A stretch of 20,000 nucleotides of DNA from Jimgerdemannia flammicorona (lineage: Eukaryota): the NCBI GenBank assembly GCA_003990765.1, contig RBNJ01000005.1:48505-68504 (forward strand), given 5' to 3'. Shown one piece after another: positions 1 to 20,000 of the stretch (the stretch's first letter is position 1; each line of letters opens with the position of its first letter). Made by a program: the position numbers and the translations under genes. The notes beneath the pieces are model-generated. The model saw nothing but the letters and a program-made list of their open reading frames with translations. It was not told the origin of the DNA and did not search any database.

Positions 1-1
1 A

Positions 2-282
2 GTATACTACAACTCTGTAACATATAGTACTGTAACCTATCAAAGATATATTAATAGCAAATTCAATAAAAGCAAAGATAAAGTACCTTCACTATCTACC
101 AATACCATACTCAGTATATGAGATAGATGATGCTATTCTATGAGATAATCAGTTTATTTCAATATATTACTATATAAATGAACAGAGAGATATAATCCAA
201 GAACTACTCTTTCTAGATAACTACTTTATTAGAGATGATATCATATGATGATCTCATCAACCTATACTCAGACAATATATAA
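2..282 (+). pseudogene. C-terminal remnant of the LTR-encoded accessory ORF (copy A)
   Basis: Translates with frameshifts to VYYNSVTYSTVTYQRY...PIPYSVYEIDDAIL*DN...LLFLDNYFIRDD...YSDNI*, aligning with 12180-12463. Confidence 0.7.
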
Positions 283-345
283 GTCTATAAATAGCTTAGC
301 AGCTATTAGTATAGTTAGATTAGTAAGTACTATATAATTATATTC

Positions 346-480
346 TGACTCATTAGTTAGTAAATCTCTTAATATATCAGTTTATAACTTATACTATAAA
401 ACTTAATTCTGACTCATCAAGTACTAAAAGTACTAATTCATATTTAGTCTAGTCTAGATAGTCTCTCATTAGTATAAATA
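346..480 (+). promoter_or_regulatory. Main LTR promoter of copy A: two TGACTCA (AP-1/Gcn4-type) sites and a TATA box
   Basis: TGACTCA at 346-352 and 410-416, TATAAATA at 473-480. Equivalent positions are conserved in copy C. Confidence 0.6.
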
Positions 481-940
481 CTCTCTCTTCCAGATCTCAG
501 AAAATTAGATAAAAAATACAAACAATCTGAGTATAAACAATCTCTTATACAAATAATCCTTCACATACTACTCCTAGTATTTACTAATAGCAATATTATG
601 AATAGTGAATAAATCTATTTAATAACTCTCAAACCACAATTAAGTAAATCTATACTATATTAGATCTCACTCCTAACTACTCTAGAAATTTTCTAATTAA
701 ATATTATTTATAGTAATATACTAATTCAACTAAACTGGTCTTAGTTTCTTGAACTTTCTGAAATAATAGAAATTCTGAACATCTAAAACAAGTTCAAGAA
801 AAGGACTTTAATTGAGATGTTAACCTAATCTTGAAATCAATAATTATAGAGAATGTACTCTATATAAAATTGATCTTGATCTAAAAAAAATAGTCTTCTA
901 GAATATTCAGAGTAATTTAACAAAGTACTCTCTTATAACT

Positions 941-8334: not shown

Positions 8335-8668
8335 TGTAAATATATAATCTCTAAGCTATAGAAATCTACATTACTCTCAGATCAAATTCAGAAATTATAT
8401 ATAAGATTATAAAGCTGAGTTAACTCAAAGTTATAGAATATAAAACTCATGAAAACAGAACCTTATCAATCAAGATTGAAGATATATATATTAGATATAT
8501 AGTATACCAAAACAGAGAACTACAATAAACAATAACTATAAATTCTCAAATATATATCCAGCCATGATCACTGAAGTCTACAACTGTATCTATACTAATA
8601 TTTGAAATACTATTGTCAACTGTGCTATAGAACTCTTATCTCTTATAAATATCTATAGCTTAGTACTA
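8335..8668 (+). repeat. 3' LTR of copy A (5' ~330 bp, truncated)
   Basis: Starts TGTAAA after the PPT and is homologous to 11111-~11471. Includes ATG 8564 and ~35 codons of the LTR ORF, then abuts pol sequence of copy B. Confidence 0.88.
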
Positions 8669-8669
8669 A

Positions 8670-10172
8670 TATAAACTCTCACCTTAGTTATTAACTCTAT
8701 TATAGAATAAATTATCACAGTATATACTGATGATAAAGAAGCTCAAGTATTCTGAGAAATCTTGAGCAATGATGATATTGACAAGTACTCTCAGTATCAC
8801 TAGTATTAATTGAAGAACAATATTATCTACTATAAGGAAAGATTGTATATTTCTAACAATCAAGACCTCTGAAGGACTATTCTATTCAAATATTATAATA
8901 CTCCTATAGCCAGATATTTAGGATTTGACAAATACTATAAAGTTATTTTTTGATACTTCTATTGGCCCTATATAGCAAATTGGTTAAAGACCTACATCAC
9001 TTCCTGTAATGTTTGCCAATACAACAAGTCCTCAATACTAGCAAAACCTGATCTACTCTACCCTATTCCAGTACTATCTGCTAATTGGGAATAAATATCT
9101 ATAGACTTTATTGTACAACTACTCTAAACCAATAATGAGAAAGATGTAATTGTTGTCTTCATAAACTATCTTAGCAAAAAAGTCTATTTAATACTTATGG
9201 CTACAATAGCAATAGTATCTGAAATTACTTTACTCTTATTTGATAATATCTTCTACTATCATAGTCTTCTCAAGATTATTATTAGTGACTGAGATCCAAA
9301 ATTCACAAGCTACTTTTAAAAAGCTCTACATATATACCTTGGAATGAAACTTGTACTATTTATAGCCTTTTATCTCACAACTGATGACCAAACTGAAAGG
9401 ATGAATCAAACACTAGAACAAATGCTAAGGAACTATATTTCCTATAGGCAAGATGATTGACATAAATACCTTACTACAGTTGAGTTTACCTATAACAACA
9501 GCAAACAAACTTCTCTTAAAATGACTCTATTTTTTGCCAATATAGGATAAAACCTGAACACCTCTCTGACTCTTAGCAGAACTATAAATGAACCCTCTAC
9601 TGTTGAAGCTATGTATTGAAGAATTTCTACTCTGAATGTATAATATAAGCCAGATTGAAATTGAGAATTTTTCCTAAGCTCAAGGACAATAATTATAGTA
9701 TTTCAACCAATACTACTAAGAAGAAATATTTGACATCAGAGAAAAAGTTCTACTAGATATCTAAGGATACTGAGTTGACAACCTCAAGCACAGACTCTCT
9801 ATAAAGCTAAATAGTAAATTTATTAGTCTATTCAAAGTTATTATACAAGTCTCTCCTACTTCTTACAAATTAGTACTACCAGATATCATCAAGATTCACT
9901 CTGTCTTTAATGTCCAACATCTCAAGTGATATAATGAAAATAATAATAAGCTATTCTCAAATCAAACTACAAAACCACCAGCACCTATCATTATTAATGA
10001 CCAGGAAGAATATGTAGTTGAACAAATCCTCAACAAATGTAGCCACAAGAACTATTTATAATATCTTATCAAATGGAAAGGTTATCCAATCTATAAAGTA
10101 ATATGAGAACCCAAAACCAATCTCCAGAATACTACTAACTTAGTTCAAGAATATGATTCTTTGAACAACTAA
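8670..10172 (+). pseudogene. Integrase + chromodomain pseudogene fragment, copy B
   Basis: CNVC zinc-finger half, IDFIVQL, SD*DPKF, DQTERMNQTLEQMLR, and chromodomain YVVEQILNK...YLIKWKGYP. Stop TAA at 10170-10172. Confidence 0.92.
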
Positions 10173-10604
10173 ACCTGAATACTCCAATACCTATTAGTCT
10201 TATACTATATATTACTTCTCTCAAATATTGTTAATACTATCCTTATAATTATCATAAATAAAATCAGAAACTCAGCAAGTCAAGATAAAAGAAATACTGA
10301 TTCTTTAGAAAAATAGCAAAACTGAAAGATAGTTTATTCTCTCTTTACTACTAGTGGAAAATGAGACATAGATATTAAGAAGATTTCTTAAAGAAAATTC
10401 TCTAGCAGTAATGATATCAGAATCACTTCCAGTGCATAGTATCAAACACATGACCCTTTAATATATAAATTTAACATTTTAGGCAACTGTACTATAAGTA
10501 TACCACTTTCTGAGAAAAATGAACATTATTAAACTTTTGACCATCCAAATAGTATAACAAACACTAGACCAAATTAGAAGACCTTGATGAGAACATCAAA
10601 AGCT

Positions 10605-10617
10605 AAGAAGGGGAGAG
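10605..10617 (+). other. Polypurine tract, copy B
   Basis: AAGAAGGGGAGAG followed by T-TGTAAG. Confidence 0.88.
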
Positions 10618-10618
10618 T

Positions 10619-11110
10619 TGTAAGTACACAACCTCTAAGCCACCAAAATTGCATATTACCCTCAGAACAAATTCAGAAATCACATACAAGATTTTGAAGC
10701 TAAGTTAAACTAAAGTCACAGATCACAAAGCTAAGTTAAACTGAAGTTACAGATTACAAAGCTGAGTCAACTTGAAGTTATGGAATACAAGATTTACATA
10801 AATAGAATCTTACTAATCAGGACTGAAAGTATATATACTAAATATGCAGATACATCAAAATGAAAAACTACAACAAACTAAACAAACAACTACAACTCTT
10901 AAATATATCCCAAACATAATCACTGAAATCTACAACTATATCTATACTGATATTTGGAATATTATTATCAACTGAGCTACAACTCTTCTGCTCCTCATAA
11001 ATATCTATAGCCTAGCACTCCTCTATTTTGTAGAAGCCTGATGGAATGCCCTGAACATATATAGCAAAGCTCACTGAATCAGACAAATCTCAAGTTACTA
11101 CCAGATTAGT
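10619..11110 (+). repeat. 3' LTR of copy B (5' ~490 bp, interrupted by copy C)
   Basis: Starts TGTAAG and is homologous to 11111-~11561. Contains the first 65 codons of the LTR ORF (ATG>ATA at 10916). Confidence 0.9.
10690..10782 (+). repeat. 31-bp tandem repeat x3 in U3 (unit ~GATCACAAAGCTGAGTCAAACTGAAGTCACA)
   Basis: Units at 10690-10720, 10721-10751 and 10752-10782. Copy C LTRs have two units each (11181-11242, 19745-19806); copy A has one (8405-8435). Confidence 0.88.
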
Positions 11111-11180
11111 TATAAGTGCACAACCTCCAAGCCACTGAAATCACATGCAATCTCTGAACAAATCTGGAAATCACCTACAT

Positions 11181-11297
11181 GATCACAAAGCTGAGTCAAA
11201 CTGAAGTCACAGTGCACAAAGCTGAGTCAACATGAAGTCACGGAATACAAGATTCACACAAATGGAATCTTACCAATCAGGACCAAATGCATATATA
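11181..11297 (+). promoter_or_regulatory. Putative upstream U3 promoter for the LTR ORF: 2x GCTGAGTCA, CCAAT box, TATATA
   Basis: TGAGTCA at 11192-11198 and 11223-11229, CCAATCAG at 11273-11280, TATATA at 11292-11297, then an A/C-rich leader and ATG at 11369. Confidence 0.5.
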
Positions 11298-11368
11298 CTG
11301 AGCACCAAGATGTGTCGAAACAAAGAACCAAAACAAACAATAACCACAACTTCTGAACATATACAAAT

Positions 11369-12463
11369 ATGACCACTGAGATCTACAACTGCATCCATGC
11401 TGACATTTGGAATGCCATTGTCAACTGAGCCACCCCCTCTGCCCCTCATGAATATCTATAGCTTAGCACCTCTCTACTTCATGGAAGCCTGATGGAATGC
11501 CCTGAATATACTTAGTGAGGCCCACTGAATTAGACAAATCTCAAGTTACTATCAGATCAGTCACCTCCTAGAAGACATGGTCGAACACCACCACGATACA
11601 GACATCACTCAGATGTCTCAACATCAGAAACTCATTTCCTGCAAACATCAAGAACTCTTCTATGAGTATAGCACTGTTATTCTCTGCCTCCAAGTTACTA
11701 CCACCGAAATGGTTGCTACCCTGTCCTATGGCCAAATCAACAACATGATACAAGAACTCAATCACAAGTACCTTGAGTATGTTGAGACTACAGACAGAAC
11801 CTTTCCACACCCCAATGACCATATCCTGCAAATGCCTCAAGTCGGATATGCCATGAAGGATGTCTATGATATAATCTGATTTGATAAAGATGAAGTAGAA
11901 GACAATGATCCCTCTGATGCTGATATGACCTCAAGCCAAGGATCCCTGCCAACCCTGATCACACCACCAACCTTACCGATGAACTTACAATAGTTCATAA
12001 CTACATATGAGACTTATTGGGACAATGATCACTGGTATGAATACCAACCCACATTTATTCTCGATTACTTTAATTATAATGAAGAGACTGGAGAACACAA
12101 CCTGTATCTTCAGACAACTCTCAAGATCAAACCAACAACTCTGCCACCCAAGTACAAGTGATTTGAACCACAGCCACCAGCTTACTACAACCCTGCAACT
12201 CATAGTGCTATAACCTATAGAAGGTATACAGATAGTGAATCTGATGAAAGTAAAGATGATACACCACTCCTTTACCCACCAATACCTTATCCAGTATACA
12301 AGACAGAAGACGCGATCCTGTGGGACAGTGATGAAGTTCCAATGTATTATTACCTCAGCGAATAAGGAGAAGTAATCTGCAAACTACTCTTCCTAGATGA
12401 CTATGTTATCAGAGATGATGTATTGATGGTAATGTTATTGAAGACTACCCAGACAGTGTCTAA
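11369..12463 (+). pseudogene. LTR(U3)-encoded accessory ORF, ~365 aa, unknown function
   Basis: Reconstructed as MTTEIYN(R)IHADIWNAIVN(R)ATTLLPLMNIYSLAPLYFMEA(R)WNAL...MVEHHHDT...YDII(R)FDKDEVED...PPKY..PPAYY...YPDSV*. A 2-nt deletion near 11435 is bridged in frame by copies A and B. ORF-track 11577..11879 is a piece of it. Synonymous transversions versus copy A support coding. Confidence 0.75.
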
Positions 12464-12526
12464 ATCTATAAATAGCTTAGCAGTCATAGTATAGTTAGAT
12501 TAGCCTTATACAATATGACTGTGAAC

Positions 12527-12660
12527 TGACTCAGCAGTCAGATGATCTCTAGATATGTCAGATCACACCTGTACTATGTAACTACATTCTGACTTAGCAA
12601 GACACTAAGTGCTACATCCATATCTAGCATAGTCCAGATAGCCCCTCACTAGTATAAATA
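12527..12660 (+). promoter_or_regulatory. Main LTR promoter of copy C
   Basis: TGACTCAGC at 12527-12535, TGACTTAGC at 12590-12598, TATAAATA at 12653-12660 followed by a C-rich tract. Confidence 0.6.
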
Positions 12661-12787
12661 CCCCCTCCCCCAGATCTCAGAATCTCAGACTCGAACACAC
12701 CAGAACAATCTGAACACAACTTCTGAGCACTTCTCCACAATATCTCTTCACATAACTACTCCTAGTATAGTAGTATTATAAATAGCA

Positions 12788-12793
12788 AATAAA
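12788..12793 (+). terminator. LTR polyadenylation signal AATAAA
   Basis: Lies 128 nt downstream of the TATA box, is preceded by TAGT-rich sequence, and is conserved in copy A (608-613). Confidence 0.55.
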
Positions 12794-13154
12794 CCTATTT
12801 AATAACCCACAAACCACTCTTAAGTAAATCTGCTCCCTGTTAGGTCCCACTCCTAACCCCATCACAAAATTTCCTAATTGGGTATTGTCTGCAGCGATAT
12901 GCCAATTCAACTAAGCTGGTCTTAGTTTCTTGAGCTTCCTGAAATACAGAAAATCCTGAACATCTAGAACTAGTCCGAAAAAAAACTTTAGTTGAGACAT
13001 CAACCTGATCTTGAAATCAATAAGTGTAGAGGATATACTCTATATGAAATTGATCTTGACCAGAAGAAAACAGTCTTCCAGAATATCCAGAACTTCCAGA
13101 AAACTCTTCCAGAACTATGTAATGGTTACTGTAAAAAGCAACCCTCTTACAACT

Positions 13155-13166
13155 TGGTAGCAGTGG
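13155..13166 (+). other. Primer-binding site, tRNA-iMet type
   Basis: TGGTAGCAGTGG, complementary to a tRNA 3' end ...CUGCUACCA as in eukaryotic initiator Met tRNA; 3 nt after the LTR-terminal CA. Confidence 0.8.
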
Positions 13167-14113
13167 TTTACAATCCAATTCTGCTTCAAGATGCTTCCTC
13201 ACTCCACTATAAACCCTTCTGAGAATTCCTACAAGTTGGTATAAAGCCCAACCTCTGAGCTGGAATTTATCCTGAACCATCTGACAATCTGGAGAGAATT
13301 GAATCTGACATATAAGGACAATTTGACCTCTACACCTGTAACAAGTGGGACAAACTTCACTTAAAGAAAGAAGTACTCTGATTAAATCAGCAAATAGGTG
13401 AAACCCTATTCACCAAACTCCTTGCCCTACACCCAGCAAGTTAAGATGAAGAAGGTCTTATAGAAGCCTTCTTTATCCTTCTCAATAAGAGTTTTATCAG
13501 CTCTATAAATCTGAGCGACCTAGAACAACCAGCAGCAGTCTTTCTAGCCTTAGTCTCTCACGAAGCCCAAGCCTCTGTAGCCAAGTGGCTCAACTCTACC
13601 AACTTTCACCATACTAGGACCAAGACTGCATTATACTACCAATTCCAGAACAGCAAGGCCTGCCATATTCTTAAGGAAGAAGCAAGAGAAACCCTTCATC
13701 AACTATCTGACCCCAAACCAGAAGCAGGCCCTACTACTGCTCTACCTGAATCTGAGACCAACACTGAACCAGAACTTGACTTTGAACTAAGTCCATCTGA
13801 AATCAGATATATAACTGATTCTGTCTACTTTGATACTGAGCAAACCCAATTACATAGGGACCAAACCAAAGAAGAGGAGGAGTATCTCAGTAAATTTGAT
13901 CCCAGATATATCACTGAAGGAGACACACCTCCATCAGGACAGAATACACTGACACAGCAACAGATAGCTATCTATTGAGCCCTCACTCCAGACCCACAAC
14001 TACTACTCCAGCAACTTACACAGACCCAAAGAACTCCATCACACTCTGTACCAGTACCTCAAGTAGTACCAGTAACACCACTACCAGCAGTCCAACTGCC
14101 TCCAGTAAACAAT

Positions 14114-15103
14114 ATGGCAAACCAACAGATTCTAGACCTTACAGCCCAGGTAGCAATAATGGCAGCAACCATTACTGCCTTAGCCAAACAGACCCGACCT
14201 ACCAAAAATCTGAGCCTACCTACCTTCAATGGTACTGCACAAGAAGTCCAAAGCTTCATTAGTATAGTTGACACCAACTTTGAAGCCAATCAACGGACCA
14301 ATGAGTGAGTTGCTGACTGCATTCTGATAAACAATCAAGACCACACTCTGGAACAACTCTTTACTACAACTACAGCCTATGTCCACCAAGTTGTTACATT
14401 CTTCCAAGGACCTGCCAAAGAATGGTAGTGAACCCTTCCTGAAAAACCCCTCACATGGGACACCCAACCTGCAGTAATTGCTCAGAATGTAGCAAATAAT
14501 ACCCCAGGATATAGAGCCCATCCTGTAGCCCCTGGACTCAAATAACTCATGATTGCTCAATACTGCAGTGAAACCATGATTGCTGAATCTCGAGTAAAAC
14601 TCTACAATCTCAAATTTGATGTATATGACAAAGAAGAATTTGAAACCTTCTGTACAAAACTTGAGTCACTCCTGAACACTGTTGGTCTAGGATATATTGC
14701 CAATGATGAAGTATGAAATGGTACAAGAGCAGACCATTTATTTGATGCTCTGCCTGAATGGCTTACTAGAAAAATCCGAGAACAAGACCACCCAGTTGGT
14801 TGTGATCACCAACAATGGTGCTTGGTAAGAATCAAGACTATGGTTAAGCGAATTCTAACAGCTGGACCAATTCTGCCCCGAAGACAATTCAATAACAAGG
14901 AAAAGACTTGGACTAAGTGAGAAGAACCCAAGCATGAAGCATCCCAAGCTCCCTCCACATCCACCTCATGGACACCCAGAAATAATAAACTCACCTAGCT
15001 GAGTACCTTCAAGAAACTCACCAAAGAAGAAAGGAATGAACTTTGAAGAAGCAGAGCATGCTTTTATTGCCAAAAGACAGGACGACATATGGCCAGTGCC
15101 TGC
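14114..15103 (+). pseudogene. gag: Gag (capsid-like region + CCHC zinc knuckle)
   Basis: LPTFNGTAQEVQSFI and FFQGPAKEW(W) capsid-like motifs. Knuckle CFYCQKTGRHMASAC at 15059-15103; copy A has the canonical CX2CX4HX4C spacing. Confidence 0.85.
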
Positions 15104-15181
15104 CCTAACCAAAAACTCCAAACAGCAATATGAGCAACTATTACTACTCTGCACCACCTCAATAATCTAACTACCAGAACA

Positions 15182-15589
15182 CTGGACTTTGTCAAGTTAA
15201 GATAAACTGCTGAGGCCCCAACTAAAGGAAGTCAAAAGGCAGCTGGATATGACCTGTATGCAGTTGAAGAAGCTACAGTTTCCAACTGAGAAGTTAAGTA
15301 AGTCTACACAGGAATCAGTATCCAAATCCCCGAAGGATATATTGGAAGAATATATTGTTGCAGCAGCCTAGCATTGAAAGGACTCTCAGTAGAAGGAGGA
15401 GTCATTGATGAAGATTATACAGGCGAAATTATTGTCCTCATCTGAAACCATAGTTGGACACCCTTCAAGATTCCCATTGATTTCTGCATTGCACAGATCC
15501 TATTTGAAAAAATTGAGTCAACACTGACAGTCAAGAAAGTCCCTGAACTACTACCCACCATCTGAGGATCCAAAGGATTTGGCTCATCA
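15182..15589 (+). pseudogene. dut: Trimeric dUTPase domain, in frame between nucleocapsid and protease
   Basis: All five motifs are present: AGYDLY; GRIYC(R)SSLA; GVIDEDYTGEI; (R)IAQIL; (R)GSKGFGSS. Arg codons appear as TGC/TGA. Confidence 0.95.
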
Positions 15590-15814
15590 AACAAGGCCCC
15601 AGCCTAACCTACCATGAACAAAGAAGAACAATTCTATAAAAAAATCGAAGACGGATATATACCAAGTGGCCGATGCCCCCATGGTATTGGAATGTACTCT
15701 TCCTGAATGATTGATGATTGCTTCTCTTGTATCAACGAACTGGCTCAAAGAAGAACCAACAGAAGGAAAGCTCCTATAACTGAAATCACCACCATTAGAT
15801 CAGACAAACTACTT

Positions 15815-16140
15815 ACACTTCAAGCTTTTGTCAACCGAGCACCTGTCAAGATTATGATAGACAGTGGTGCCTCAGGCAACTTTATCAATGAAGAAACAGC
15901 CAATAGACTCAAGGTCTTCACCTCTCTGGTACAACAAACTCAAGCAGTTGCCACAGCTGATATGTAGAACCTCACATGTCATTAGCAAGAAAGTCTGCAA
16001 TCTACCCTTCTGAATTGGTAACTACCAAGTACATGTTACCCTCCAAATTGTACTGCTTCCTGACAATGAGATCATTCTTGGAACTCTATGGTTAAAACAA
16101 GAGAACCCTATGATCAATTGGGTAAACCATTCTCTGACTA
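15815..16140 (+). pseudogene. Aspartic protease domain
   Basis: MIDSGASGNFI (DSG at 15860-15868) and IILGTLWLKQENPMINW. Confidence 0.92.
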
Positions 16141-16429
16141 TCAAGAAAGGACACCACAACTTCAAACTGCAAGGTGAAAAGGACCCACTCAGTTCTAGTG
16201 ACTCTGGACCAAAGATTACCTACATCAACAAGCTACAGCTCAAGAAATTGGCCAAGAAATGCCCTCTCTTTGCCATCTCCATCCATTCATCCAAAGGAGA
16301 ACCCAAGAACACTGAGGAAGACTTTTCCAAAGTTGACAGCCATGTTAGACCCTTACTCCAGAAATTCTGAGATATATTCCCAAAGAAGCTTCCAAAAGGC
16401 CTATCACCTAAATGAGCAGTAGACCATGC

Positions 16430-17370
16430 CATCAAGACTATCCCAGATGCCAAGCCAGCCTTCAAGTCAATCTACCACATATCGCCAAGAGAAATCAATG
16501 CACTCAAGAAAGAAATTGATGAACTCCTAGAACAAGGATTCATCAGACCCAGTGTATCACCCTATGGTGCACCAGTCCTCTTCATTGTAAAGAAAGGAGA
16601 AGACTTGCAAATGTGCATTGATTATCATGATCTCAATGAACAGACCATCAAGAACTGTTGCCCACTATCCAGAATCGATGAAATATTTGATAGGCTCACC
16701 AACCCACAATTCATGAGCTCTTTTGACCTGTGAAATGGTTACTGGCAAATTGCCATGAAAGAAGAAGACATCTACAAGACAGCCTTCCAAACCTGCTATA
16801 GACACTTTGAGTTCCTGGTTATACCTTTTGGCTTAACTAATGCTTCTGCAACCTTTCAGACACTGATGAACACCATCCTGTATCCATACCTAGACAAATT
16901 CATTGTTGTCTACATTGATGATATCCTAGTCTTCAGCAAAACCCTGGAGGAACATCTTGAACACCTTGAACTAGTACTACTGAAACTCCGAGAAAACTGA
17001 CTCTTTGCAAAACTCAGCAAGTGTGAATTCTTCCTGAAGGAAATTCAATTCCTTAGACACATTGTTATACTAAATAGAATCAAAGTGGACCCCAGCAAAA
17101 TCTCCACAATCAAGGATTGGCCCAGACCTAAGAAGCTGAAAGACCTCCAGTCATTTCTGGGATTAGCAAACTATTACAGGTGATTTGTTGCCAACTTTGC
17201 CAAAATTGCTATGGCCCTCACCCAAATGACCAAGCATAGCAAGAATGAAGAACAGCCCTGGACCATGAAACAAGAGAAAGACTTCAACAATCTTGCAAAT
17301 TAGGGACCCAAACAAGATACAGCCTTTCTAGCACTGAAAGATATCTTGATAATTACTCCAGTACTTCAAG
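16430..17370 (+). pseudogene. Reverse transcriptase and connection domain
   Basis: GFIRPSVSPYGAPVLF, CIDYHDLN, DL(R)[23 protein letters not shown] and YIDD (16911-16922). Confidence 0.97.
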
Positions 17371-17384
17371 TGGCAAACTTTGCC

Positions 17385-17745
17385 CTGCCATATGAAGTTA
17401 CTACAGATGCCTCTGATCTAGCCCTTGGAGCAGTACTCATGTAAGAAGGACACTCTGTGGCCTATTACTCTCGAAAGTTCAATGATACTAAAATCAACTA
17501 TACAACTCACGAGAAGGAAATGTTAGCCATTGTAGACACTCTGATCAAATGGCAACCATATCTAGAAGGAGCACACTTCACTGTATTGACTGATCACAAG
17601 TCATTAGTCAACATCAAGACCCAGGCTACCCTTTCTTGAAAGCAAGCCAGATGGATGAAAGTTCTTACCAACTTTGACTATGAAATCTAGTATCACCCTG
17701 GCAAGAAAAATGTTGTTGCCGATGTGATCTCCAGACTACCAATCG
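17385..17745 (+). pseudogene. RNase H domain
   Basis: VTTDASDLALGAVL, NYTTHEKEMLAIV, LTDHKSL and GKKNVVADVISR. Confidence 0.95.
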
Positions 17746-17899
17746 AAGAAGTTATCCAAACTCTCACCTTGGTTACAAACTCTATCATAGAATAAATTAT
17801 CACAGCATGTGCTGATGATAAAGAAGCTCAAGCACTCTGAGAAATCCTGAGCAGTGACAATGCTGACAAGCATATCTGATACAACCAATACCAACTAAG

Positions 17900-19000
17900 G
17901 GATAATGCTATCTACTACAAGGACAGATTATATGTTCCAAACAACTGAGACCTCCAAAGAACTATCCTATTGATACCATAGCTGGATATTTAGGATTTGA
18001 CAAATGCTATGAAGTTATCTCCCATAACTTCTATTGGCCCCACATGGCAGATCAGCTAAAGACCTACATCACTTCCTGTGATGCCTGCCAATGAAACAAG
18101 TCCTCAACACTAGCAAAACCTGGCTTACTCCACCCTATCCCAGTACCATCTGCTAATTGGGAACAAATCTCTATAAACTTCATTGTACAACTACCCCAAA
18201 CCAAGAACAGAAAAGATGTAATTGTTGTCTTTGTAGACTATCTCAGCAAATCAAGCCCACTTTGTGCCAACTACCACTACTGTAACAGCACAAGATATAG
18301 CTACACTCTTGTTCAACAACATCTTCCACCATCATGGTCTTCCTAAGATCATTGTTAGTAACTGAGATCCGAAATTCACCAGCCATTTTTGGAAAGCCCT
18401 CCATGCACACCTTGGAATGAAGCTTGCACTATCCACAGTCTTTTACCCTGAAACTGATGGCCAAACTGAAAGAATGAACCAAACTCTAGAACAAATACTA
18501 AGGAACTATGTTTCCTACAGATAAGATGATTGATATGAACACCTCACTGCAGTCAAGTTTGCCTACAACAACAGCAAGCAAGCCTCTCTTGGAATGACTC
18601 CATTCTTTGCCAACACTGGACAAAACCCAAACACCCCTCTGACACTCATCTGAACTACTGATGAACTCTCCACAGTTGAAGCTGTTGAAGAATTTCTGCT
18701 CCGAATGCATAATCTAAGCCAGATGGCAATTGAGAATTTATCATGAGCTCAAGAACAACAGTCACAATATATTAACCAACACTGCTGAGAAGAAATCTTT
18801 GATATTGAAGAAAAAGTTCTACTAGATATCTGAGGATACTGAGTTGACAACCTCAAGTACAGACTATCTACAAAGCTGAACAGCAAGTTTATTGGACCAT
18901 TCGAAGTCATTGCACAAGTCTCTCTGACCTTCTACAAATTGGCACTACCAGACACCATTAAGATTCACCTAGTCTTCAATGTCCAATGTCTCAAGCGATA
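17900..19000 (+). pseudogene. Integrase (HHCC partly deleted, DDE core, GPF)
   Basis: CDAC, I(D)FIVQLP, VS(D)(R)DPKF, TDGQTERMNQTLEQILR and KFIGPFEV. Confidence 0.95.
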
Positions 19001-19079
19001 CAATGAGAATAATGATGAGTTATTCCCAAACTGGACCACCAAACCACCTGCACCTGTCATTATTAATGATCAAGAAGAA

Positions 19080-19223
19080 TATGAAGTTGAACAAATCCTC
19101 AACAAATGTGGCCACAAGAACCACCCCGAGTACCTTATTAAATGGAAAGGTTACCCAATCCATGATGCAACCTGGGAACCCAAAACCAATCTCCAGAATA
19201 CAACTGACTTAGTTCAGGAATAT
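19080..19223 (+). pseudogene. Chromodomain at the integrase C terminus
   Basis: YEVEQILNK...EYLIKWKGYPIHDATWEPKTNL, with the aromatic cage residues intact. Confidence 0.95.
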
Positions 19224-19237
19224 GATTCCTTGAATAA

Positions 19238-19633
19238 CTGAAACCCGAACACTTCTGCACCTATTGGTTCATACTATATATTGCCCTCCTGAACATTATA
19301 ATTATCACAAACAAAATCAAGAACTCAGCAAGTCAAGACAAAAAAGAATACCAACCCTCTGAAAAAAAAGCAAAACTGAAAGCAAGCCTATTCTCCCCAT
19401 ACCACTGGTGGGAAATGAGGTGTAGATATTTAAAAAGATTTCTTAGAGGAAATTCTCCAGCAGTGAATGATGTCAGAATCACTTCTGGTGTACAGCATCA
19501 AACACATGATCCTTTAATGTGTGAATCCAATGCATTAGGCACCTGTATTATGAGCATACTACTTTCTGAGAAAAATGGACTTCACTGGACTTTTGATCTT
19601 CTAAATGGTGTAATAACACTAGAACAAAATTAG
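19238..19633 (+). other. Putative small ORF in the env position with an N-terminal hydrophobic segment (start codon not identified)
   Basis: 131 sense codons without a stop: LKPEHFCTYWFILYIALLNIIIITNKIKN...PYHWWEMRCRYLKRFLRGN...TLEQN*. Homologous DNA is present in copies A (7923-8300) and B (10173-10577). Confidence 0.45.
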
Positions 19634-19660: not shown

Positions 19661-19673
19661 AAGAAGGGGAGAG
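19661..19673 (+). other. Polypurine tract, copy C
   Basis: AAGAAGGGGAGAG followed by T-TGTAAG. Confidence 0.9.
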
Positions 19674-19674
19674 T

Positions 19675-19983
19675 TGTAAGTGTGCAACCTCCAAGCCACT
19701 GAAATCACATGTGACCTCTGAACAAATCTGGAAATCACCTGCACAATCATGAAGCTGAGTCAAACTGAAGTCACAGCATACAAAGCTGAGTCAATATGAA
19801 ATCACGGAATACAAGATTCACACAAATAGAATCTTACTAATCAGGACCAAATGCATATATACTGAGCACCAAGATGCATCAAAACAGAGAACCAAAACAA
19901 ACAACAATCATAACTTCTAAATATACACAAATATGACCACTGAGATTTACAACCACATCCATGCTGATATTTGGAATACCATT
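19675..19983 (+). repeat. 3' LTR of copy C (5' ~309 bp, interrupted by poly(T))
   Basis: Gap-free alignment to 11111-11419; includes ATG 19933 of the LTR ORF. Confidence 0.93.
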
Positions 19984-19999
19984 TTTTTTTTTTTTTTTT
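19982..19999 (-). repeat. Poly(T)18, probably the poly(A) tail of a minus-strand non-LTR insertion
   Basis: The LTR should continue ...CCATTGTCAAC but switches to a T run. The rest lies outside the window. Confidence 0.5.
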
Positions 20000-20000
20000 A

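Follow-up and report, generated by a model that had tools for sequence, protein, structure and literature searches.

The stretch of DNA analysed here (the window, 20 kb) is made up of three degraded, hypermutated copies of one LTR retrotransposon, denoted A, B and C, which are 72–80% identical to each other in pairwise comparisons. No ORF of at least 150 amino acids starting with ATG was found anywhere in the 20 kb, and all element copies in the window are dead. Copy C carries a 5' LTR of about 2 kb, and inside this LTR lies a decayed gene that is the subject of this study. The features of the locus are collected in Table 1.

Table 1. Features of the three element copies and of the LTR-borne gene (positions in the window; +, forward strand)
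Feature	Position	Strand	Remarks
Copy A	5' LTR end 1–937, internal part to 8334, 332 bp of 3' LTR	+
5' LTR of copy A, 3' part	1–937	+	gene end 5–281, then TATAAA, AATAAA, CTTATA
3' LTR of copy A, first 332 bp	8335–8666	+	ATG 8564 and 34 codons of the gene
Copy B	5'-truncated internal part 8667–10618, then 492 bp of 3' LTR	+
3' LTR of copy B	10619–11110	+	492 bp, directly after the polypurine tract; first 65 codons of the gene
Copy C	5' LTR 11111–13151, internal part, 308 bp of 3' LTR from 19675	+
5' LTR of copy C	11111–13151	+	2,041 bp; starts TATAAG, ends CTTACA
Two 31-nt tandem units	11184–11245	+	each with TGAGTCA (11192, 11223); enhancer-like, motif-based
CCAAT (11273) and TATATA (11292)	11273–11297	+	72–96 nt upstream of the ATG; candidate promoter, motif only
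LTR-borne gene, here a pseudogene	11369–12463	+	ATG 11369 to TAA 12461–12463
TAG/TAGT-rich block	12467–12510	+	just past the stop codon; read by eye
TATAAATA	12653–12660	+	candidate core promoter for genomic RNA; same word in copy A at 473
AATAAA	12788–12793	+	candidate polyadenylation signal; in copy A at 608
Primer-binding site TGGTAGCAGTGG	13155–13166	+	3 nt past the LTR end
gag (CCHC), dUTPase, protease, RT, RNase H, integrase, chromodomain of copy C	13445–19241	+	all decayed
Polypurine tract of copy C	19661–19673	+
3' LTR of copy C, first 308 bp	19675–19982	+	start codon 19933 and 16.7 codons, then T run

A decayed dUTPase-bearing chromovirus in three copies

The preliminary description of this DNA had called the element a chromovirus, and Pfam searches agree with it. 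Copy C matches, in order, RVT_1 (6.7e-28), RT_RNaseH (2.3e-30), SH3_Tf2-1 (1.3e-13) and Chromo (2.3e-15). A CCHC zinc knuckle, CFYCQKTGRHMASAC, is present in the gag frame of copy C, which gave no match to a gag family in Pfam, and a dUTPase domain (14948–15700, Pfam 3.7e-31) lies between this zinc knuckle and the protease, the motif of which is also present. The domain set and order of copy C (gag CCHC, RT, RNase H, integrase, chromodomain) thus identify the element as a Ty3/gypsy chromovirus. The hallmarks of Ty3/gypsy elements were found as well, namely TGTAAG..CTTACA (TG..CA) ends, the primer-binding site and the polypurine tract. The nearest pol proteins found are 35–51% identical, and an Rfam search gave no match.

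The copies have decayed largely by transitions, which make up 36 of the 42 differences between the two LTRs of copy C and 1,288 of the 1,760 differences between the internal parts of copies C and A. Going from copy C to copy A, 53% of CpA sites and 55% of CpG sites were changed, versus 21% of CpT. C-to-T hypermutation forms a gradient over the copies, with a GC content of 28% in copy A, 30% in copy B and 41% in copy C, and CpG is almost absent throughout, with observed/expected ratios of 0.01, 0.00 and 0.13, respectively. The RIP indices of copy A (1.21 and 0.90) pass the usual limits, and those of copy C (0.80 and 1.39) fail. C-to-T change in this repeated DNA is thus focused on CpA, and here also on CpG, in the manner of RIP-like hypermutation; the decay agrees with a RIP-like process of fungal type together with CpG decay, and the host of the element looks fungal. 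Plant-type CHG methylation as the mutator was ruled out, since CAG and CTG are not in excess.

An alternative genetic code was considered because many pol stops are common to the copies, and it was rejected on two grounds. The shared stop cluster at 17979–18234 coincides with a shift of the true frame: the integrase core of copy C (~17900–18240) is in a frame different from those of RT and of the integrase C-terminus, and hence many of the stops that appear shared in a single frame are out of frame. At the other stops a homologue mostly has Arg, Lys, Gln or Trp, as CpG and CpA decay predicts.

Two breaks in the copies were observed. At 8666/8667 the cut 3' LTR of copy A runs straight into pol sequence of copy B, at the counterpart of position 17752, and this junction is a deletion or recombination, not an integration. 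At the end of the window, the 3' LTR of copy C gives way to 17 consecutive T (19983–20000), which could stem either from a further, reversely oriented insertion or from the assembly.

A gene between the LTR start and the primer-binding site

The limits of the LTR can be read from the copies themselves. The polypurine tract, AAGAAGGGGAGAG, is followed by one T and then by TGTAAG of the LTR; this start was seen directly after the tract at 10619 and 19675 and was placed at 8335 by alignment, and the 5' LTR of copy C reads TATAAG at the place where the other copies have TGTAAG. The end is marked in copy C by CTTACA (13146–13151), ACT and TGGTAGCAGTGG, and copy A has a decayed twin of this arrangement at 932–952, of which 941–952 correspond to the primer-binding site. 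Consistently with these limits, 12183–13248 of copy C aligns to 5–1034 of copy A at 72% identity. The three junctions between polypurine tract and TGTAA, the CTTACA end (13146–13166 including the primer-binding site) and an LTR length of ~2 kb had all been proposed from the sequence at the outset, and they hold, with the junction at 8335 resting on alignment. The promoter-like motifs named at the same time (TGAGTCA, CCAAT and TATATA) were all located in the LTR, as were TATAAA (12653) and AATAAA (12788). Copy B has about three of the 31-nt units (10697–10790) where copy C has two, indicating that the enhancer-like repeat varies in copy number. A tract similar to the TAG/TAGT-rich block, which the preliminary description had likened to a 3' end, follows the stop of the gene in copy A at ~286–325, again as read by eye.

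The gene starts 258 nt inside the LTR of copy C and ends 688 nt before its end. The polypurine tract precedes it and the primer-binding site follows it, which places it outside the internal region and, as in the case of MMTV sag, leaves the complete ORF inside the LTR. Pieces of it were found in the 3' LTRs and in a second 5' LTR. The preliminary description had the three 3' LTRs entering the ORF by 35, 65 and 17 codons; we measured 34.3, 65.0 and 16.7 codons past the position of the start codon. ORF pieces adjoin both the polypurine tract (3' LTR of copy B, 65 codons) and the primer-binding site (5' LTR of copy A, ~80 codons), demonstrating that the gene is LTR-borne. Copy C joins the first and last parts of the gene unbroken, and 11562–12182 is present in a single copy in the window. 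The window holds no complete 3' LTR and no solo LTR, the three 3' LTRs stopping after 332, 492 and 308 bp.

We also examined related contigs from four public runs (three soil metagenomes and one organism), aligned to copy C at a likeness of at least 85%. The runs gave 7,637, 1,473, 855 and 765 aligned contigs, and contigs from all four cover the 30 bins. The 32 pieces listed, out of 10,752, are 151–515 nt long and hence short, and among these short aligned contigs of the four runs none links the polypurine tract to a whole LTR. Scans of metagenome_contigs and viral_contigs yielded no related locus of greater length.

Copy C sits within the 3' LTR of copy B (11108–11111), which breaks off at the start of copy C, at the counterpart of position 11561. 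Contigs of other runs join 11794, 11906 and 12779 back to the LTR start (11111/11113), as 11561 is joined to it in the window itself, which shows that the family nests in itself repeatedly. Among the joints listed inside 11561–12183 there are only two single contigs, both jumping back to the LTR start, as expected of nested insertions. Since such insertions occur at varied points, 11561 does not mark an LTR end. One contig of run X5 connects 13151 (LTR end and primer-binding site) to 17557 in pol, skipping 4.4 kb, and looks like an internally deleted derivative. Summed contig depth over 12455–13327 is 2–4 times that over the gene, where depth is not copy number; gene-less LTR variants, or merely better conservation of 12455–13327, could account for it.

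Reading frame, relatives and product of the LTR-borne gene

A ~365-codon ORF at 11369–12463 had been proposed for the LTR. Its start, stop and length hold, and it is not open. Of the 364 codons read in a single frame from ATG 11369, 36 are internal stops. It is the frame of 11412–12421 that carries the coding signal, with 6 stops in 360 codons, and over the whole LTR the frame of the coding signal has 29 stops in 685 codons versus 54 and 48 in the other two frames. The ATG at 11369 and the TAA at 12461–12463 are joined only via two small frameshifts, near 11430 and 12421, and across these frameshifts there are seven internal stops (11426, 11490, 11526, 11877, 11991, 12159 and 12363). The single TAA of copy C to which the decay had at first been limited therefore understates it. 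The gene begins with MTTEIYNCIHADIWNAIVN*A (21 codons from 11369) and ends with IDGNVIEDYPDSV (13 codons) before the stop. The stop density of the gene (6 in 360 codons) is about that of gag (9 in 552) and pol (28 in 959), each read in a single frame. In the core of the gene, 11709–12425, there are 4 stops in 239 codons, a number equalled or bettered in the best frame of only 67 of 20,000 shuffles.

The related contigs bear on both frameshifts. Two extra bases after 11430 are present at depths of 309/354, 71/191, 18/21 and 36/80 in the four runs, and also in copies A and B. One extra base after 12421 is present in all of X5 and X7, at 34.9/132.9 of the depth in X2 and at 0/23.9 in X1. Restoring both indels brings start and stop into a single frame of 366 codons, in agreement with the preliminary description. 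Position 12363 is a sense codon in most related contigs (26, 18, 9 and 7 contigs in the four runs). In the window, codons 1–65 share a single frame in the 3' LTR of copy B and are interrupted by stops only at the three positions where the homologue P0127 has Arg, and copy A retains about the last 80–90 codons of the gene (5–281), with one frameshift and a stop at 279–281 in the matching place.

Relatives of the protein were sought by word-based searches of 5.8 billion proteins and a profile search of 1.84 billion representatives (E <= 0.001). The word-based searches found two relatives, P0127 and P0002. P0127 is an intact sequence of 128 amino acids that is ended by the edge of its 1,180-nt contig. 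It begins with MTTEIYN, as the window does at 11369, is 81% identical over 106 residues, and has Arg at the TGA stops 11426, 11490 and 11526. The profile search returned only P0002 and P0006. P0002 is intact, 247 amino acids long, on a 998-nt contig, and is 59% identical and 79% similar to 11709–12425. The final 13 residues of P0002 correspond to 12422–12460, read in the neighbouring frame; both sequences end in ..YPDS(I/V), in the window next to the TAA at 12461–12463. P0002 has Gln at the window stops 11877, 11991 and 12159. P0006, a plectin-repeat protein matched in 8 short stretches, was set aside as a repeat artefact. Neither the profile search (1.84 billion representatives) nor the word-based searches (5.8 billion proteins) found a cellular homologue.

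The differences between copies carry a coding signature, as the preliminary description had held. In 12183–12421, transversions between copies C and A fall 5/2/11 on codon positions 1/2/3, thus 11 of 18 (61%, p 0.014) on third positions, and the corresponding counts are 28/34/91 for pol, 26/15/55 for gag and 18/20/9 for the non-coding part of the LTR. Transitions between copies C and B in 11431–11561 fall 4/3/13. Given the two intact homologues, one with the matching start (P0127) and the other with the matching end (P0002), sequence comparison shows that the gene in the LTR is real, family-conserved and ~365 codons long. To suppose that there is no gene, and that the near-open frame is a chance or compositional effect of an A-rich LTR, is hardly credible: the window has no open frame at the gene and the protein models are of very low confidence, but the two homologues, the bias of transversions to third positions and the rarity of so few stops among the shuffles all stand against it.

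The protein is an orphan with no recognisable family or fold. The N-terminal ~125 amino acids are predicted to be helical with low confidence (AlphaFold pLDDT 49). The protein beyond this part, as seen in P0002, is acidic (pI 4.05; 46 Asp+Glu versus 10 Lys+Arg), Tyr/Pro-rich and without Cys; the AlphaFold model of P0002 is poor (pLDDT 33), with no confident fold predicted for the C-terminal part. Pfam gave nothing at or above the curated cut-off, with one RAMP match for P0001 (E 0.067, 13.7 bits versus a cut-off of 27) and none for P0002 and P0127. The LTR protein had no match in a PDB sequence search and no usable match in the ESM Atlas, and no hydrophobic segment was noticed in it by eye. 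The protein is, in our view, an accessory or regulatory factor of the retrotransposon.

Probable placement in U3 and comparison with known systems

Together, the data make it probable that a dUTPase-bearing Ty3/gypsy chromovirus family has a 2.04-kb LTR with a complete extra gene of ~365 codons, most likely in U3, which is a pseudogene in the window. The CpG- and CpA-directed C-to-T hypermutation that destroyed gag-pol would also have put the seven stops into the gene. Because the gene lies inside the LTR, every full element carried two copies of it. The gene is situated between the upstream module of repeats, CCAAT and TATA and the TATAAATA and AATAAA words of the LTR, so placement in U3 rather than in R is the most likely reading, one that draws on the TATA and AATAAA motifs only.

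The gene could instead lie in a very long R or leader, with the TATATA at 11292 acting as the genomic promoter and the gene as the first cistron of the genomic RNA. The CCAAT and TATATA upstream of the ATG, below the two TGAGTCA repeats, do resemble an LTR promoter. This arrangement would, however, make R ~1.5 kb long and put over 2 kb, with a 365-codon ORF, between the cap and gag, whereas the second TATA (12653) and the AATAAA (12788) are at the usual spacing and the same words occur in copy A; we regard it as unlikely. Less likely still, to the point of being improbable, is that the gene is no standard part of the family but was picked up by the LTR of a single sub-lineage, from the host or a foreign source, or that the LTR is a recombinant chimera. 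Such an origin would suit the orphan protein, the single copy of 11562–12182 in the window and the depth over the gene, which is below that of 12455–13327, but each of copies A, B and C has parts of the gene despite their divergence, P0002 is still intact at just 59% identity, the codon-position bias is like that of gag and pol, and the profile and word-based searches gave no cellular homologue, only P0002 and P0127 once P0006 was set aside.

If the gene is in U3, it may be transcribed from the upstream module of each LTR (two 31-nt repeats, CCAAT and TATATA; 11184–11297), and the transcript would be polyadenylated at the LTR's own signal (AATAAA 12788), with genomic RNA beginning at the downstream TATA (TATAAATA, 12653). 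That each LTR, solo LTRs included, is in this way a self-contained gene, with an upstream promoter, a 365-codon orphan ORF and the LTR poly(A) signal, is a tentative suggestion that we find somewhat doubtful.

Among known systems, the layout is closest to the superantigen gene sag of MMTV. This gene is a complete ORF of a few hundred codons in the U3 of an unusually long LTR, upstream of the LTR core promoter, and each provirus carries two copies; its product, Sag, is a type II membrane glycoprotein. The gene described here likewise has its whole ORF, a few hundred codons, within an LTR of unusual length, upstream of the candidate core promoter (12653), and is duplicated in each element. The LTR protein, however, has no sequence match to Sag (Pfam, PDB sequence search), which makes it a topological analogue only, the host is fungal-looking, and the element is a chromovirus without env. 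In HIV/SIV nef and foamy-virus bel/bet, accessory coding sequence 3' of pol reaches into the 3' LTR. These genes begin in the internal region and share only part of their length with U3, unlike the present gene, which both starts and ends inside the LTR.

In plant elements, additional ORFs (ORF0 of Retrosat2/RIRE3/RIRE8, the env-like ORF of Athila, gene23 of Grande) are described in the available text of two papers as family-conserved, of unknown function, often orphans and often faster evolving than pol (PMC3485330, PMC7264820). An extra orphan ORF conserved in a family is what they share with the gene described here. As described in the same text, they are all internal, located before gag or else in the stretch from pol to the 3' LTR (PMC7264820, PMC3485330), whereas the gene in copy C lies between the LTR start and the primer-binding site and is therefore duplicated with the LTR. 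Fungal chromoviruses that bear a dUTPase are known, namely Tmt1 of Tuber and elements of Phanerochaete and Postia (PMC2864245). They resemble our element in being Ty3/gypsy with a chromodomain and a dUTPase domain, but the available text describes no gene within an LTR for them (PMC2864245). Literature searches by phrase for ORFs in LTRs brought up essentially MMTV papers alone and no case from an LTR retrotransposon, although such cases may be in print, for example in supplements. The gene appears to be an accessory gene of an LTR retrotransposon in a sag-like position, a layout otherwise known mainly from MMTV.

LTRs are usually regarded as control regions that do not code for protein, and they are masked during annotation. 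A gene in the LTR, if conserved, would be duplicated with each insertion, would persist in solo LTRs after the loss of the element and would be missed by gene finders. It would carry the idea of the retroviral U3 accessory gene over to a non-enveloped, fungal-looking retrotransposon, and it offers an orphan protein with a testable role in transposition or host silencing; if the reading is true, its action might be, for example, to activate the LTR or to counter silencing. If each LTR is self-contained, the element would seed the genome with additional units for expressing a transposon-encoded accessory protein. If true, it would be the first LTR retrotransposon outside the retroviruses found to have a sag-like U3 gene.
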